From the NCBI GenBank assembly GCA_951406725.2, contig OX597817.1, forward strand, positions 150,288,001-150,352,000: a stretch of DNA of 64,000 bases. The letters are read 5' to 3'. The position numbers and the translations under genes are program-made. Shown piece after piece: positions 1 through 63,695 of this stretch. Within the stretch, counting starts at the first letter, position 1, and each line of letters begins with the position of its first letter. The notes below the pieces were generated by a model. It saw only the letters and a program-made list of their open reading frames with translations, was not told where the DNA came from and searched no databases. This stretch comes from Octopus vulgaris. Taxonomy: Eukaryota.

Positions 1-43
1 AAGTGATGTTGTTAAAGTATATATTTTCATTTTATATTTATAT

Positions 44-1908: not shown

Positions 1909-3174
1909 AAAACAGGTTGCATTATTCATTTTTGCCATTCCTTTATCTACTTCCAATACAATCCATCACTCTCATCTCTTCCACTACCTTCTCATCCCAA
2001 TCACTCTGTTTCTACCATCACACCCTTGCTCTCATTTCCCTACCCAACCTGATTCTCCTGTCATGGCTGTCTCTTTCATTCATCTCGTCAACTAAATAAT
2101 TGAATAAGTGAGCACTATATAGAGTTGTTATGAGTCTCTAATCTTCAAGGGATAAATGCACCGTACAATTTTGGGTGCCACTAGAAATCCACCCAAGCAA
2201 GACATTCTGTAAAGTCGCTGACAAGTGAATTTAGAGGAACTTTTCACTTCGCTGAGAACATAGTAACCTCTCTAATGCTGGTGCCATGAAAAAAATGCAC
2301 ACAATACATTTTGTAGAGTGTTTGATATCAGGAAAATCATCAATTCAGAGCCACCAAGTAACTCACAAGACAACGAATTATGAGAAGAGCAGGAGCATTT
2401 GAGGAGGTGAACTCATGTCAGAGGATTAAAGGTTAGAGGGTGACAAAGAGACAGAGAGGCAGTAACAGGTGGGGGAATTGGAAGAGGTGATCTAGTAACA
2501 GATGGTGAAAGGTTAGAGTGTGACAGAGAAATAGAGAGGCAGAAATAGGTGTCTTGCTATAGAGGATGTACATGGTTATCCACCGAGCGAGACAAAGAGA
2601 GAAAGAGAGAGAGAGTAACCAAGAATGAGGGTAGAAATAGGTTTGCTGCTGTAAAGGAGATATCTGGTTACCCAGCCAGAGGAAAGAGTGAGGAAAAGAG
2701 GGAGAGGGAGAGTAGGAAACAGCAAAAGTATAAGAGAGAGCAGGAGAGAGATGGTGAAGTGTCAGGGTATACTCATAAGTAACAAGGATCAGAGCATAGA
2801 TATGATGGCAGAGTAAAGAAAAGAGAGGTATGAAGGTCATAATATGCACAGTCAGGTGTTGTTAAGAAGGTGCAAGTAGGGAGCGGGGATTGCAGTGACT
2901 GACAAAAACCTGGGTAGAGGGCAAGAAAGAGGATTGGAAGACAATCATAGTTTATGAAGAGGAAATGTGAGGAAGAGAAAGATGCTTTTTAGAATGGATG
3001 TAGTTTGGTTTCTTGGGGTAGGGTGTGTGAAAAGTTTGTTGTTACATGGGGTGGGACACAACTCTTCTAGTTTTGCTGATGTGGGCAGGTCTTCTCTAGA
3101 ACCTCATATCACCAAACATCTCAGTTCATATATATATACGTGGCAAATGCTCAGGAGCAATAAACACTGGAAAT

Positions 3175-3801
3175 GTGCAGAGACCAACTTCTGCCACGTT
3201 CCAAGGAGACAAACTAGAAGTAGTTGATAGCTTCCGCTACCTAGGAGACCAAGTCAGTAGCGGCGGTGGGTGTGCTGAAAGTGTAACTGCTAGAGTAAGA
3301 ATAGCCTGGGCAAAGTTTAGAGAGCTCTTACCCCTGCTGGTGACAAAAGGCCTCTCGCTCAGAGTAAAAGGCAGACTGTATGATGCATGTGTACGTACAG
3401 CCATGCTACATGGTAGTGAAACATGGGCCGTGACTGCTGAGGATATGTGTAAGCTCGCAAGAAATGAAGCCAGTATGCTCCGATGGATGTGTAATGTCAG
3501 TGTTCATAATCGTCAGAGTGTAAGTTCCTTGAGAGAAAAGTTGAACCTAAGAAGCGTCAGTTGTGGTGTGCAAGAGAGACGGCTGCGCTGGTATGGTCAT
3601 GTGACGAGAAAGGCTGAAGATAGTTGTGTGCAAAAGTGCTACACCCTAGCAGTTGAGGGAATCTGTGGAAGAGGTAGACCCAGGAAAACCTGGGACGAGG
3701 TGGTGAAGCACGACCTTCGAACTTTAGGTCTCACTAAGGAAATGTCTAGAGACCGAGACCTATGGAAGTATGCTGTGTGTGAGAAGACCCGGCAAGACTA
3801 G
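3175..3801 (+). pseudogene. RTE reverse transcriptase C-terminal fragment (open 208 aa)
   Basis: Motifs as above; the RT core lies outside the 5'-truncated copy. Confidence 0.88.
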
Positions 3802-6561: not shown

Positions 6562-6594
<33 letters not shown>

Positions 6595-6620
6595 GTATAT
6601 ATATATATATATACACACAC

Positions 6621-6852
6621 ACATGAAATACGAAAATAAATGAGTCCAATATGGAAACGAGAGAAACAAATAGAAAACAGGACAAGTAACATAAAGAACG
6701 ACCCTTCATCAGTTGTCATTCAATGCTCGATATGATGTGTAGATAGACAGCCGACAGCTGATGAAGGGCCATTCTTTATGTTACTTGTCCTGTTTTCTAT
6801 TTGTTTCTATTGTTGTTTTCATGTTCACCTCATTTGTTTTCATATTTCATGT
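6621..6852. repeat. Imperfect palindrome with ctgatga in both arms
   Basis: agaaacaaatagaaaacaggacaagtaacataaagaa...cccttcatcag versus ctgatgaaggg...ttctttatgttacttgtcctgttttctatttgtttct. Confidence 0.85.
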
Positions 6853-6905
6853 TGTTTACAGTTGGTGACGTCCTGTACCCATATATGCATATGTGTGTTT
6901 GTATG

Positions 6906-6943
<38 letters not shown>

Positions 6944-26364: not shown

Positions 26365-26436
<72 letters not shown>

Positions 26437-26438
26437 TT

Positions 26439-26569
26439 ATTTATTATATAGAAGGAGCTTCTACAGGACTAGAACTGTTTCATTCAAGAGAAATCTTCAG
26501 GAAGCTCCTGAAGATTTCTCTTGAATGAAACAGTTCTAGTCCTGTAGAAGCTCCTTCTATATAATAAAT
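26439..26569. repeat. Perfect palindrome (64-bp arms, 3-nt loop)
   Basis: 26439-26502 is the exact reverse complement of 26506-26569. Confidence 0.95.
26453..26509 (-). ncRNA. Type I hammerhead ribozyme (Penelope-associated type)
   Basis: Minus strand: AGGAGCUUC-CUGAAGA-u uuc ucuu gaa u-GAA-ACAG uucuaguc CUGU-A/GAAGCUCCU. 9-bp stem I, intact core, GUA cleavage triplet. Confidence 0.8.
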
Positions 26570-26635
26570 TAATTTTACTCTGCTATGTATTGAGTACCTT
26601 ATTTACTGTGGTTAACCCCGAATCAACCCGGGACC

Positions 26636-26698
<63 letters not shown>

Positions 26699-26879
26699 GG
26701 AATATGAACTATTTTTTCGAACAACGAAAGACACAAATGGAAAACAAGACAAACAACATAAAGAACGACCCGTCATCAGTTGTTGGCTGTTTTTGTACTC
26801 TCGTATTTCGAGCATTTAACAACAATATGCGCTTTTAACATTTAACAACATATGATGTAACTCGTCAGGAGGATTGACA

Positions 26880-48278: not shown

Positions 48279-49461
48279 TGTCAGCATCCCTGCTGAACGA
48301 TCACCGTCTGTTACTGATATATTTTTGAGCTTTTAAACACAGCACGTCCATAAGTGATGTTATCTCCAGATGAGCACATTAGTAAATTTGCTTTTTCAGA
48401 TATATTTAGTAATACATGAAGTATGATACACTGATGATCACACACACACATATGATTCGACTGCAATATATTTTTACAGAATCTAATTTTTATCAAACTT
48501 GCAGGTGACTGAAAGGAAATCGGTGAAATTTGAAAATGAGAAGAATGAGAAATATGTGATGTCCTTGAGAAAGAGAAATAATCTTCACACATTTATCGTA
48601 GAACACTTCTCTTTTGCCAGTTAACCACTATTTGTGTCTAAGTGAGGGAGAGAGAGCGGTCTTGGCAACCAGTCAATCGTAGAAAAGGAAAGGGAGTGAG
48701 GATTAGCAGATTGATTCGCTCATTATTTACTTTTATCAACTTGGCTGATATTTAAACTCCAGACATCAGGCTGAAAGGTAAACACTGGGAATGTCTAATT
48801 CGATGCTGCTCCGTCTGTAACAGTTGGACATTACATGAGAGAGAAGAGCTGTGGAGGCTGATTGAACACAGAAAGATAGGAACTTTATGCTCTGTTTGGA
48901 CATGTACGAGAGAGAAGGGCATTTGAGGGTAAAATGCAATGGAACTCTGGTTAGACATATATTAAACAGAAGGGTATTTCAGGGTAGATTTAATTTAGAC
49001 GCAGTTGGACAACTATTAGAAAAAGGGCATTTCATACTCCGGATAGATACATATAAATCAGAAGGGCATCAGAGATTGTGCTCCACATGAACATACAAAG
49101 ACGTTAGAGAATAGATTTATGTACATGTTGGACATCTACGAGACATAGGGCATTGGAGGGTAGATCTAATGACCTCCTGTTAGACATATTAGAAGGTTTT
49201 TTTAATGCTGATTTCTAAAATAAAAGTACAATAACTGAGAGGACTATGGTGGCGTGCCACGAGAGAAATAACAGACAGACGCACCATAAACAGTGTTTCT
49301 ACTCAAGAAAAAATTCATAATATCCAGCCAGAAGTATTTCAGACATCGATCTTTGTACTTTCGTTAATAACATTAACAAACATAGGCTTATGAAGAAAAT
49401 TTGATCTTGAGGAAATTTAAACTTGAGGTCATTTTGTGTACATATATACATACACATATAT

Positions 49462-50170
49462 GCTCACTCCCTTTATCAAATCGACATTACCTGTACAGGT
49501 TCAAAGGATGCAAACATATCAAATGACGAAATGCTCACAAGAGCAACGTCAAATGAAGTGCTTTGCTCAAGAACACAACATAACGCCCTGTCTGAGGATC
49601 GAACCCACGATCTCGCAATCGTGAGTGGAACACCCAAACCACTAAGCTATGCACCTTCACAAACACACACACGCATATATATATATATATATATAAACAT
49701 ATACCTATATATATATACACACACATATATATACATATATACACATATATGTATGTATATGTGTGTGTGTGTATGTATATGTTTATATATATATACGCGT
49801 GTGTATATGTATAGGTATATGTTTATAAATATATATATATATGTATGTATGTGTGTGTGTGTGTGTGTGTTCGTGAAGGCGCATAGCTTAGTGGTTTGGG
49901 TGTTCCACTCACGATTGCAAGATCGTGGGTTCGATTCCCAGACAAGGCATTGTGTTGTGTTCTTGAGCAAAGCACTTCATTTGACGTTGTTCTGTGAGCA
50001 TTTCGTCATTTGATATGTTGGCATCCATTGCACCTGTACAGGTAATGTCGATTTGATGGAGGGAGTGAGCTTATGTCCACAAAAACATTAATTTGATCAC
50101 TATAAACAAATCCTCTGTGTGTTTGTTCAGTAAGAAATTGTCGAACCCTCATACGTCGTTTAACGACGGG
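49462..50170. mobile_element. Head-to-head inverted pair of tRNA-derived SINEs (family E)
   Basis: 49462-49670 is a reverse complement of 49862-50070, with a microsatellite spacer; A/B boxes tagcttagtgg and ggttcgattcc. Confidence 0.88.
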
Positions 50171-58713: not shown

Positions 58714-58851
58714 TTATTTGTAGGTTAACAAAGCAACCAATGGTTTCATGCAGTTAAATCTCTTAACACTTATCAAGCTTACTAACTCATTCAGCTCGAT
58801 ATTAGCATATATATATATATATTTTATTTAAAGGACACAATACGTCTTTAA

Positions 58852-58905
58852 GTGCTACTAATAGTTTCATATGTTGAGAAATATATCGAACATATTCATC
58901 AGGCC
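58852..58905 (-). ncRNA. Type I hammerhead ribozyme motif in the arm of a palindrome (58823-59068)
   Basis: gggc-CUGAUGA-AUAUGUU(13-nt loop)AACAUAU-GAA-ACU auu AGU-A/gcac. 7-bp stem II; stem I short with one mismatch. Confidence 0.6.
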
Positions 58906-60663
58906 CAAACCTATATGCTGCCTACTGTTTTTTTTTTTTCGTGTTTGTAATTCAATTTTTTTTTTAGTTCGTTATATGTGGTTTGTGCCTGATGAACATG
59001 TTAGATATTTTGTAACATAAAAAACTATTAGTAACACTCAAAGAAATTAATTGTGTCCTTTAAATAAATAATATTTATCTCACCAGGTGGAGTACTTTTC
59101 TTGTTGAATTTTCTATCACAGAAAGTACATTATATAATATATATTTATATCGCTTAAGCACTGCGATATTAATATCCTGGTTTAAAATGTATGTTTCTGG
59201 ACTGAGCGCTAATAAGAAGATCGGTTATTCTTTTGTCATCACTTTGTGTGTGTGTGTGTGTGTATGATAATTTTGTTTTTGTGTTATTGGCAAAATGGCC
59301 ATCCTGAGATAGAAAAAAAAAAAATATATATATGATAGAACCAAACCCACTAACAAGACTTTGATCAGCCCAGAGCTTATAGTAGAAGACACTTCTTGCC
59401 CAAGGTGCCATGTAGTGGAACAAAGCCTAAACTAAGCAATGGGGAAGCAAACTGTTTAATCATAGCCACACACACATTATATATGCGAAAGATACATTCT
59501 AACACACATCTCCATTTCACATGTATATAGATAGGTACAGGTGTGGCAAGGAGTTTTCTTTCCAACCACATGGTTTGAGGTTCAGTCCCACTGTGTGGCA
59601 CCTTGGGCAAATGTCTTCTACTACAGCAGCAGCAGGCTGACCGAAGCCTTGGGTGGGTTTGGAAGACGGAAACAAAGCTCGTCGCATGTGTATTGGTATG
59701 CGTGTGCATCTTTGTGCCTGTCTTCCACCATTACTAACCGGTATTGGTGTGTTAGAATAAATACCAATTCATTCGACTAAAAATATTTTTAAAGATGGTG
59801 TCCCACCATGGCTGCAATCATTTGACACAAAAGTAAAAGATTTTAAAAAAATAAAATTTAAAAAAAAAAGAGAGAGTTCAGTTTTGGACTATCTTAACTA
59901 ACCTCAAAATGGTCCAGAAACAAAATGCAAAACAGTAACACCAAAGTTTTACTATATTGGTTAGACATTGCTACAAAAACACATACCTTTAATCTTATGA
60001 CACAATTTTAATAAATTAAATGACATATACATTGCCATGTAAAAAGCACCCATTACCCTTTATAAAATGGTTGGCATTAGGAAAGGCATCTTGTCATAGA
60101 AACCATGCCACAACAGACAACTGGAGTATAGTGCAGATCTCTGCTTTGCCAGCTCCTGTCAAACCATCCAACCCATGCCAGCATGGTAAATGGACGTTAA
60201 ATAATGATATATAAATTGCATAAGTAATTTTTTTTGATACTTTCATTTTTAAGAAAATTCACAATCCCCTGGATCAAAAGCCACCGTACAAGATGAAACA
60301 AAAGGTTAAAAGAATCTTTCCTTAAACATCTACTCTATGATAACACATAACCAAAATCACCATCATCATCGTTTAACGTCCGCTTTCCATGCTGGCATGG
60401 GCTGGACGATTTGACCAAGGGCTCGCGAACCAGATGACTGCACCAGGCTTCAATCTTGATCTGGCAGAGTTTCTACAGCTGGATGCCCTTCCTAACGACA
60501 ACCACTCCGAGAGTGTAGTGGGTGCATTTACGTGCCAGTGAGGCGGTACTGGCAACGACAATGCACAAGTAAATGATTAGAAAGAGGTTGCTGTTTTCAT
60601 TTATCAGTCACCTCATTAAAACCAGTTAATTTTATTACACAAGTAATTGTTAACAGAAGACAT

Positions 60664-60893
60664 AAATACTATTGAACCTTGGGTGAGGCATTATGCCGGG
60701 AATAATAAACACATGCACTGGTTCGGTCCTTTATTGCTATTGTTAGTTAATCCACTAACAAATCTATCAATAAGCTGTTAGATTTGTTAGCGGAGTAACT
60801 AACCCATCAACTAACAATACTAATAAAGGACCGAACCAGTGCGTGTGTTTATTATTACTGGCATAATGCCCCTCCCAAGGTTCAATAGTATTT
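60664..60893. repeat. Long imperfect palindrome (MITE-like)
   Basis: aaatactattgaaccttggg...cactggttcggtcctttatt versus aataaaggaccgaaccagtg...cccaaggttcaatagtattt. Confidence 0.88.
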
Positions 60894-61710
60894 CATCCAA
60901 TACACAAATTCTCATCAAGAATCTTGCAAACCAAATACGAATACAAGTAATTCATAAAAAATAAACAAAAATGCAATTTACTTCTAAGTTTGTGCAAAAT
61001 AAATAAATAAATAAAGTAATTATGAATCGAGATGCAAGTATACCCAGAGACAAATGTAGTCAAGATCAAAAGCAGTTGTAATAATGACTATGGTCTCTTA
61101 TAGAGTGTCGGAGATTCCATTTTGAAACAAATGATGAAAGATAAAACAAGTTAGAAAGTGAAGCATGATCCAATTATTCTGAAGCATTTACTTATTCACT
61201 TTAGTAATTCAGTGAAGCCAAGTTTTATGGGTGTGGTGTTAACAATGAGGTTTACATTTCCTGTTATTGCTAGTTTCATTTATAATTATACTGCCTTCCC
61301 CATAGATGACTCTTAAGAAAAGTCAGAGCTTATTTATACATATACAAGATATATTTTTCTGACATTTTTCAGTTCCACCAAAATTGGTGTACACAAGTAC
61401 AGGAATCTGACCGGCTGCCATCAGTTTGTGCCAGTCACCAAGAATTGGGTGTTTTTAGACCCCAAAGAGCTGATTTCCTCCATAAAATCAGGATAACTGC
61501 AGCCCACCTGAGAAATGAGCCCCACGAAATGGAGTGACTGCTGCAGTGAGTGTCATTAGCCATTCTCCACAGCAACACCTTTGCAAATGTCTGCAAGGTG
61601 CAGCTAAATATGCCACTTATTCTGAAGTATACAACCTGCTACCCACCCCCTGCCCATCTGCTGCTTAATCTCCACCACACTTTTTCCTATATATATATAT
61701 ATATATTTAA

Positions 61711-62175
61711 TGCACATTACTTACATTTGACAGATATTTGTCCTCATCTTGTTTGTTAGCACAATGTTTTGGCTGATATACCCTCCAGCCTTCATCAGGT
61801 GTCTTGGGGAAATTTTGAACCTGGGTTCTCATTCCTAAGGTATTTTTCAATATTATTATTATTATTATTCAGGTCACTGCCTGGAATCGAACCCAGAATC
61901 TTAGGGTTAGTAGCCCACTCTCTAAACCACTACACCATATGTCCATGGGCATATAGTGTAGTGGTTAAGAGCGCGGGCTACTAACCCCAAGATTCTAAGT
62001 TCGATTCCAGGCAGTAACCTGAATAATAACAACAACATCGAAAAATACCTTAGAAATGAGAACCCAGGTTCAAAATTTCCCCAAGACACCTGATGAAGGC
62101 TGGAAGGTATATCAGCCAAAACATTGTGCTAACAAACAAGATGAAGACAAATATGTCAAATGAAAATAATGTACA
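61711..62175. mobile_element. Spacerless ~230-bp-arm palindrome: head-to-head tRNA-like promoters, each followed by a decayed minimal HHR
   Basis: Centre ccatgg at 61943-61948. The arm has tagtgtagtgg and gttcgattcc boxes, then gacac-CTGATGA-aggctg..cagcc-aaaacatt-gtgc (62085-62129). Confidence 0.85.
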
Positions 62176-62329
62176 TAATTCCTCATCTCTTAAATATAGA
62201 ACAGTAGTTTTAATGTGTTTACTTTCTTTTCTTCCTATTCAAATAATGTTATTAAAAACAAAGTTCAGTTTTATTGTTTAAAAAAAATATATACAAATAA
62301 ATACAATACACACACAAGAATTCTTTCAA

Positions 62330-62910
62330 ATTTTGGCACAAGGCTAGCAATCTTAGAGCAGAAGGACCCAATTACATCAACCCTAGTACTAAACTCGTAT
62401 CTATTTTATCGACCCTGAAAAGATGAAAGGTAAAGATTGAGCTCATCAGTATTTGAACTCACAACATAAAGAATCAGACTAAATGCTACTATGCATTTTG
62501 TTTGAAGTGCTAACAATTCTGCTAGCACACTGCCTTAATAATAATAATAATGGTTTTAAATTTCGGCACAAAGCCAGCAATTTCGAGGGGGAGGGTGTCC
62601 AATTACATCCACCTCAGTGCTCAACTAGTACTTTCTTTATCAACATCAAAAGAATGATAGGCAAAGCCAACTTTGGCAGGATTTGAACTCGGAATGCAAA
62701 GATGGACAAAATGTTGCTAAGTATTTTTGCCAGATCGCCTCAATAACAGCAGCAGCAGTAATAATTTTGGCACAACGCCCGGAATTTTGTAGGGAAGAGT
62801 TAAGTCGATTATAGCAACCCTAAAAGGACAAAAAGGAAAATTGGTCTTGGTGAATTCGAACCCAGAATATAAAGAGCTGGAAGCAAACTGTCACCAAGCA
62901 TTTTGTCTAT
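62330..62910 (-). mobile_element. Old, CpG-depleted SINE family B copies
   Basis: Decayed tcgaccctgaaaagatgaaagg...tttgaactc units. Confidence 0.7.
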
Positions 62911-63695
62911 AAGCTCACCACCTTAACAACAACAACAACAGGAGGGGGAAAAAAAAAAAAGGAAAATGTGAATGTGATAAACTTCATGTACAAGTGTTTT
63001 ATTAACATTTTAATTTTATCGTACTGTACCTGTATTAGTATGGTTTCCACTGCATACTAATTGAGAAGCAAGAGTTTAACTTTTTTTTTTTTTTTTTTTT
63101 TTAAGTGAGATTTCTCATTTTGAACTCAGCATACTCAACAAGAAATTTTATTCTCACATTCTGTCAATACTGTTTGTCATCATAAAAAAAAAAAATATAA
63201 ATAAAATTAGTCCAGTCCAGTTTTCTGCTCAAGCCTCGACCCACTCTATATTTAATAATGTCTATGTATGCACATTTTTTTCTTTTTTTTCATTGTGAAT
63301 TTTTTTGGAGCCTATGATGGGAAAGATGTGGTGTAGAGAGGACATTTTTCTCTCTCAATATTTTGTACTGTACAAAGGAGGAAAACGGTCTTCTTTTTAC
63401 ATTTCAAACTCACCCTCCACATTTTAGTTGAAAAGGTTAATTCAAAAAAAATTTTTTTTTGTAAATGTTAATAGCTATCTTAATAGTTTGAGATGAAATT
63501 AAAACCTGACCACTAAATAGCTGTTAACGTGTACCTTACAGAACAAATTAGCAAACACAATTAGCATTGTATTACAACTGTTGTTCATCAGGAAGAAAGA
63601 CAGAGGGAAGAAGAGAAAACCAAAGGTGGTTGTTACCATTAGAAGACAATGCCAAGTCAGAGGTGCTTAATGTTGGGGGAGAATTACTTTGTCCA

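Follow-up and report, generated by a model that had tools for sequence, protein, structure and literature searches.

Endonuclease-bearing Penelope-like elements (PLEs) leave a distinctive insertion product. In PMC8557442, PLEs are described with an inverted, 5'-truncated copy, a 30-40-bp tail and a bias towards microsatellites, and in PMC3846280, Pen2a_Av is described with an inverted pLTR, a 31-bp tail on one side and an 8-10-bp target-site duplication (TSD). For the anole element Poseidon PAc, PMC11167929 states that the tail spans the interval separating two starts of reverse transcription, that the enzyme cuts ATT on both strands, that hammerhead mutants still insert in vitro and that no RNA-seq reads end at the cleavage site. 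Short non-autonomous derivatives of PLEs are known in the form of MRC1 and its relatives, non-LTR retrozymes (PMC8557442; bioRxiv 10.64898/2026.07.22.740005; PMC7229834), and also from PMC6685494. Pol III heads have been described on non-autonomous LTR elements (PMC10886601), and the octopus tRNA SINEs OK, OR1 and OR2 (Ohshima and Okada 1994) are cited in PMC4758252; OR2 is listed as a CORE SINE.

The locus described here lies in a 64-kb stretch of DNA (the window). In our reading, to which we give a probability of roughly 0.7, it is a decayed insertion belonging to an abundant octopus repeat of ~260 nt that consists of a tRNA-like head, an (AAT)n tract and a hammerhead-bearing PLE-type 3' end, for which Pol III is the likely polymerase and a PLE enzyme, acting in trans, the likely means of copying. 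Alignment of 61710-61945 (minus) with 61946-62176 (plus) gave 89.8% identity over 236 columns with a spacer of 0 and an E value of 7e-88, which bears out the spacerless palindrome proposed in the first-pass annotation. The element extends beyond the 61711..62175 given there, as the right arm alone continues to 62206, and 61713-61714 is a better position for the outer end of the left arm. The order of parts within an arm was correctly given as A- and B-box-like motifs, a CTACTAA loop, (AAT/AAC)n, CTGATGA, helix II and AAAACATT-GTGC, except that an interval of ~55 nt between the microsatellite and the hammerhead, present in each arm, had been omitted. Read outward, CTGATGA is followed in each arm by one extra A, a 6-bp helix II and then AAAACATT-GTGC. 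No second copy of the arm was found within the 64-kb window, where just short matches to the head and the microsatellite were seen. No open frame of at least 120 aa overlaps the ~260-nt unit, which is thus non-autonomous, without an RT and GIY-YIG ORF. The features of the locus are listed in Table 1.

Table 1. Features of the palindromic locus, in coordinates of the window.
Feature	Position	Strand	Basis
(TA)n microsatellite and AT-rich target, left flank	61690..61709	.	sequence
Left copy of the 7-bp TSD candidate (TTTAATG)	61706..61712	+	control comparison
Left arm, inverted full-length element copy without 3' tail	61713..61945	-	arm alignment and family read ends
Right arm, full-length copy with tail; family unit ~260 nt	61946..62206	+	depth up from 61946, collapse after 62206 in 4/4 runs
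Right-arm tRNA-like head, with A box starting at 61954 and B box at 61999	61946..62021	+	box motifs; ARAGORN and Rfam negative
tRNA-like head, left arm; A box from 61937	61870..61945	-	box motifs
(AAT/AAC)n stretch joining head to PLE-type end, length variable	62022..62038	+	loose ends at 62022 and 62029 are more AAT units
Minimal type I hammerhead of right arm, decayed (A in place of G at G12 and G16.2; helix I pair lost at 62129)	62085..62130	+	motif scan and family letters
Minimal type I hammerhead of left arm, decayed by the same three changes	61758..61803	-	arm alignment and motif scan
33-nt one-sided 3' tail, PLE type	62174..62206	+	depth; loose ends 62202 and 62206
Right copy of the 7-bp TSD candidate	62209..62215	+	control comparison

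The A-box-like and B-box-like motifs of the head are 45 nt apart and correspond to tRNA positions 8 and 53 if 61947 is taken as position 1, so that the first base of the head is at most one off from tRNA position 1. The two boxes at the 5' end are thus spaced as in tRNA-derived SINEs. ARAGORN found no tRNA in the window, in either arm or in the version carrying the family majority letters, down to -ps80. A blastn search with the head returned just 19-23-nt matches at non-significant E values of 0.6-8, 11 of the 25 listed being on annotated tRNAs; the head may resemble tRNA-Arg. The sense strand of either arm has no T4 run, which is compatible with Pol III read-through, if weakly so.

The repeat family was read from four public sequencing runs aligned to 61921-62250 at 80% likeness. 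Two are sets of contigs, X1 (species label A) and X8 (label C), and two, X23 and X24 (label C), are raw RNA reads from one study, of unrecorded library strandedness and sampled to ~6% of each run. Two further runs, from insect metagenomes and with small word shares, were left out of the family analysis, and contig depth was not taken as copy number. The arm or part of it was present in 20 of the 24 runs listed, and the runs with arm shares of 0.32-0.64 fall under five species labels. The exact 31-nt arm pattern had 0 matches in metagenomes. Matches to the family comprised 35,446 contigs in X1 and 15,235 in X8, together with 8,246 RNA reads in X23 and 6,818 in X24, and the family has the short, dispersed, high-copy and non-coding character of a SINE. 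In all four runs, family depth rose at 61946-61955, was continuous to 62206 and collapsed thereafter. The lowest RNA depth bin between head and hammerhead reached 77% and 79% of the head peak, and one contig covers 61976-62116 and links the head to the hammerhead part. This continuous depth and the spanning contig show that the head and the hammerhead part form one ~260-nt unit. Separate occurrence of these two parts elsewhere would have spoken against the first-pass annotation; across the family reads and contigs they were found together. The loose ends of contigs in the microsatellite consist of further AAT units.

The depth of the hammerhead part was ~1.5 times that of the head in both RNA runs and was also higher in contigs, as expected from 5' truncation or from other elements that share the 3' end. 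This excess would also suit an origin of the entire unit, with its head, from the pseudo-LTR or 3' end of an autonomous PLE; the copies would then be ordinary truncated stubs, and the head a captured fossil or a PLE promoter instead of the place where a SINE RNA of its own begins. Further points for such an origin are 380 RNA reads of X23 that share one sequence upstream of 61943, only loosely like an inverted head, and the unrelated hammerhead-like stubs that form the same head-to-head pairs in the window. We nevertheless consider it unlikely, since depth falls off steeply at 61946-61955 in all four runs, the head starts where a tRNA would, the inverted joints described below cluster at 61946-61959, and neither the shared sequence nor any other upstream loose end was among the six loose ends listed for each of X1, X8 and X24.

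RNA reads of the family pointed neither to a discrete Pol III transcript nor to cleavage. Neither starts nor ends of RNA piled up in X23 and X24, both mate directions were about equally frequent, and 85-86% of the RNA reads continue into unlike sequence. A>G and T>C changes were found at more places in RNA (25/21 and 25/22) than in DNA (12/6 and 11/7). C>T and G>A changes double too, however, so that the excess is no evidence of A-to-I editing.

A scan for CTGANGA, a helix II of at least 4 bp and AAAA[CT] returned three sites in the window, including both arms, compared to a mean of 0.17 and a maximum of 1 in 30 shuffles. In the present copy G12 is A, the helix III tetramer is ACAT and one helix I pair is lost; the C at 62129 that breaks helix I is a third hammerhead change common to both arms. 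The family majority carries other letters. Among the RNA reads of the two runs, 62118 is G in 1913/2819 and 1579/2284 (68-69%), 62123 is G in 1909/2383 and 1515/1923 (79-80%), and 62129 is T in 1674/2243 and 1350/1824. By summed depth of the DNA contigs, G makes up only 42% at 62118 in both X1 and X8 and 49% (X1) and 84% (X8) at 62123, and T makes up 93% and 95% at 62129. Since the DNA contigs carry the same letters, these are not products of RNA editing. The T at 62122 in ~40% of the RNA reads reflects decay of the same CpG on its opposite strand. Once the majority letters are put in, helices I and II make all 11 of their target pairs and helix III becomes a self-complementary ACGT. The first-pass annotation had proposed that reversal of two CpG>CpA changes yields a classic minimal hammerhead and had left the matter to the consensus; the family majority is indeed GAAACGTT, and the present copy is decayed.

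Judged by its letters, the family majority is an intact predicted minimal hammerhead ribozyme (min-HHR) of the kind that PMC4209133 describes for metazoan PLEs. It has the full core (CUGANGA ... GAAA ... UH), one unpaired base before helix II, G10.1-C11.1, a helix II of 6 bp (6-8 bp in min-HHRs), a helix I of 5 bp (4-5 bp) and a palindromic 15.2-16.2. In contrast, the present copy lacks G12 and the helix III palindrome and fails at the core, where G12 is A. Free folding gave no hammerhead fold (z -0.87), which is expected for a motif without helix III. Rfam searches at E up to 10 returned no hammerhead family and no tRNA, and the miRNA and lncRNA matches obtained were driven by the hairpin and lay below the gathering score. 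Pairs of min-HHRs on opposite strands are reported 100-700 bp apart in PMC4209133; the corresponding distance here is 292 bp. As its two hammerheads lie on opposite strands, the palindrome layout cannot give a cis dimer. The predicted fold of a read-through RNA is one long hairpin of 209-226 pairs. With opposite-strand hammerheads and a read-through RNA that would fold as a single hairpin, the palindrome appears to have no ribozyme function, and the locus, a dead copy, is probably functionless.

A 27-nt motif of the family was found at four metagenome loci representing two distinct elements, and in 0 genome contigs and 0 viral contigs. In L002 and L003, the same helix II and core lie ~100 nt behind a broken Penelope-type RT/GIY-YIG frame with candidate Penelope RT and GIY-YIG motifs. 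Pfam returned no family on three L002/L003 frames, and Atlas feature hits to HTH_animal and GIY-YIG were present on 18-38% of cluster members; the PLE identity of L002 and L003 is based on these hits and the RT and GIY-YIG motifs. In L001 and L004, helix I covaries at two pairs. Among the contigs and reads searched, no autonomous PLE sharing the 3' end of the octopus unit was found, the 27-nt motif being all that it has in common with a PLE remnant from another source. Within the Penelope-like remnant of L003, a short (TTAGGG)n tract at 3047-3075 interrupts the RT region. L001 (283-692) and L004 (564-969) share a 415-nt repeat, 90% alike, that ends ~13 nt after the hammerhead motif and in L004 adjoins a LINE RT frame.

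The right arm carries 62174-62206, a stretch which the left arm lacks. Tailed ends at 62202/62206 were among the loose ends listed in all four runs, and we read the ends at 62202 as reads stopped by a mismatch at 62203. RNA reads leaving the family sequence after 62173, listed as loose ends at 62154, numbered 427 and 302. The presence of both tailed and tail-less ends among the reads shows that both 3' ends are general in the family. The 3' end is a fixed, non-repetitive sequence that ends at 62206 or 62173, and the family was found to lack the poly(A) or simple-repeat tail that a SINE shares with its LINE. A 7-bp direct repeat (61706-61712 and 62209-62215) frames the unit beside (TA)n at this one locus; a 7-bp match was found in 15/5000 random pairs and in 39/4942 pairs of the real left with a random right side (0.3-0.8%).

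Joints between family copies were also informative. Among the 15 joints listed of 132, seven connect opposite strands. Six of these seven combine a position within 61946-61959 with one at 61998, 62037, 62073, 62082, 62156 or 62164, and are full copies abutting an inverted, variably 5'-truncated copy; the five listed from DNA rest on one contig each, all from X1. No end-to-head (head-to-tail tandem) joint was seen among the 15 joints listed of 132. Spacerless centres recur in the family, as shown by 110 and 96 contigs whose letter at 61942 is absent from the present locus. Depth 13 nt into the inverted head was 17% and 12% of contig depth at 61946 and 3% and 2% of that at 61955, values for which hairpins may be under-read, and in RNA it was 37% and 40%, a share that seems to come from few loci. 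On the question, raised by the first-pass annotation, of whether copies are usually palindromic, spacerless palindromes are thus a minority (12-17% of contig depth at 61946).

The perfectly abutting inverted arms and the TSD candidate are what a miniature inverted-repeat DNA transposon with long terminal inverted repeats as arms would show. The asymmetric ends, with the arm ends 33 nt apart, largely refute such a transposon, as just 2-3% of contig depth at 61955 (12-17% at 61946) runs at least 13 nt into an inverted head and the partners are variably truncated; this origin is highly improbable. The one-sided tail, the 7-bp TSD candidate and the truncated inverted partners instead make up a PLE signature that had gone unnoticed in the first-pass annotation. 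Compared with endonuclease-bearing PLEs, the locus is alike in its inverted copy at the 5' end, its one-sided tail of 30-40 nt, its AT-rich, microsatellite target with a short TSD candidate, and its hammerhead near the 3' end. The octopus unit differs in that it has no ORF and carries an A/B-box head with a fixed 5' end rather than a Pol II pseudo-LTR promoter. The head-to-head form, part of the architecture that had been called unusual, is an ordinary insertion product of endonuclease-bearing PLEs (PMC3846280, PMC8557442).

Head-to-head pairs with hammerhead-like motifs occur elsewhere in the window. A near-perfect 68-nt palindrome with a 5-nt centre and a CTGAAGA...GAAAC hammerhead-like motif lies inside (TA)n at 26435-26657; its right arm is ~70 nt longer, and it is likely another PLE end. 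At 58813-59130, the arms of a second pair are 83% alike across a ~70-nt spacer. The left arm, which abuts (TA)n, keeps CTGATGA, a 7-bp helix and GAAAC, and the right arm has lost the G and is ~55 nt longer. These two pairs are unrelated in sequence to the palindrome and share its layout, which also suggests that the head-to-head form is not unusual. A further head-to-head pair, at 6562-6933, starts with CTGATGAAGGG between (TA)n tracts and has a third partial copy at 26720-26798; no GAAAC box was found in register.

The combination of a tRNA SINE with a hammerhead, also part of that architecture, is known from schistosomes (PMC6765202, PMC2770079). Sm-alpha and Sj-alpha are alike in being short, high-copy repeats with a tRNA-derived Pol III head followed by a hammerhead. 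Sm-alpha, however, forms head-to-tail tandems with multimer cleavage and a canonical hammerhead, whereas the octopus family has a minimal hammerhead, head-to-head copies and a PLE tail. In the text available on them, MRC1 and its relatives resemble the family as short, non-coding elements with a PLE-type end that are presumably moved in trans. They form head-to-tail arrays, and no tRNA or Pol III head is mentioned there; the octopus family has a tRNA-like head and is arranged head-to-head. OK, OR1 and OR2 share a tRNA-like head in octopus and are set apart by description, OR2 being a CORE SINE. OR2 is about 270 bp, roughly the length of the octopus unit.

These comparisons bear on whether the family could instead be a LINE-mobilised tRNA SINE, like Sm-alpha or the catalogued OR2, with a hammerhead relic and a palindrome formed by a second insertion or a fold-back rearrangement. 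Such an account draws on a head architecture similar to that of other SINEs in the window (29-34 letters alike of 55), on the schistosome precedent and on the presence of another head-to-head SINE pair in the window (49458-50074). It is very unlikely, as the 3' end is two-stepped with no poly(A) or simple-repeat tail, the inverted partners are truncated at many places and one TSD candidate encloses both arms. In addition, independent copies would have fewer changes in common than the two arms do, matches of the arm to other SINEs in the window are confined to the head, and OR2 belongs to the CORE SINEs.

Within the paired region, 13 listed sites of the right arm differ from the family majority. 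Six of these changes (61957, 61996, 62072, 62118, 62123 and 62129) recur in the left arm, compared to 2.45 expected for an independent copy (P 0.017), so that the arms are not independent insertions. This agrees with the proposal in the first-pass annotation that the same inactivating changes in both arms reflect one template or conversion. CpG transitions account for 5/6 shared but 3/15 changes private to one arm (Fisher p 0.014; differences in the microsatellite and at the boundaries not counted), private status assuming that the 77 variant rows beyond those listed hold no majority letter. Four of the six shared changes fall within a 90-nt stretch that holds one arm difference (permutation p 0.019). 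Both the CpG bias and the clustering lean towards changes that are younger than the insertion and were passed between the arms, by hairpin mismatch repair or template switching, rather than inherited. On the other side, the numbers are small, the windows were chosen post hoc, 15 private changes stay uncorrected, and a single decayed template would also yield identical arms, given that hammerhead-dead RNA still inserts in vitro (PMC11167929). We hold later correction and a decayed template to be evenly balanced.

The anatomy of the locus, the family unit with its intact hammerhead, the one-sided tail, the recurring head-to-head joints at the 5' end and the losses in the present copy can be accommodated in one scheme, in which the PLE enzyme acts in trans. 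A 5'-truncated PLE end may have inserted in the (AAT)n tract behind a tRNA-like head. Pol III would read from ~61946 through the whole unit, whose sense strand offers no T4 run. The PLE enzyme would then bind the PLE end, cut AT-rich DNA and begin reverse transcription from two sites, one including the tail and one excluding it. In a single event, a second copy, often truncated, would be set inverted at the 5' end of the first, and a spacerless palindrome would result when both copies reach the RNA 5' end. The hammerhead is in this scheme a putative passenger of the PLE end, dispensable for insertion.

Several other repeats are present in the window. Two copies of another tRNA-headed SINE lie head-to-head across a (TA/TG)n spacer at 49458-50074 and are closer to each other (~93% alike) than to other copies in the window (72-76%). 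A separate 230-nt palindrome at 60664-60893, 800 nt left of the main palindrome, has 88-nt arms (91%) and a nested inner hairpin; it has no other copy in the window and is probably MITE-like. Just right of the main palindrome, at 62329-62930, are three decayed SINE copies ~230 nt apart, probably of the octopus OK type. A 233-aa frame at 3100-3801 is the 3' end of a LINE reverse transcriptase, with Octopus proteins as its closest named relatives (90%, 84% and 71%).

Neither a tRNA-headed SINE with PLE insertion marks nor any octopus hammerhead element was found in the literature searched, and the O. vulgaris repeat paper makes no mention of hammerheads. The family may nevertheless have been named before. 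The palindrome, the tail and the minimal hammerhead are already known as PLE traits; the new part is the tRNA-like head on a short element moved by a PLE. SINEs are classed by their LINE partner. We tentatively suggest, at somewhat less than even odds, that the family represents a class of SINE partnered with a PLE, not a LINE, in which a Pol III head on a PLE pseudo-LTR has reached high copy across several octopus species and seeds long RNA hairpins. If this is true, the inverted copy that PLE insertion routinely adds would supply such hairpins ready-made, in a lineage noted for A-to-I editing on a massive scale. A SINE-PLE pairing would be added to those described, as a rare case of a SINE borrowing a Penelope rather than a LINE enzyme. 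The ~260-nt unit with its fixed 5' end would be a minimal natural substrate for the building of the inverted copy and the tail, steps that PLE papers call unresolved. Among recently active octopus SINE families, 893 of 900 are unclassified (PMC13282606), and the same reading, if true, suggests that some of these may be PLE-dependent.
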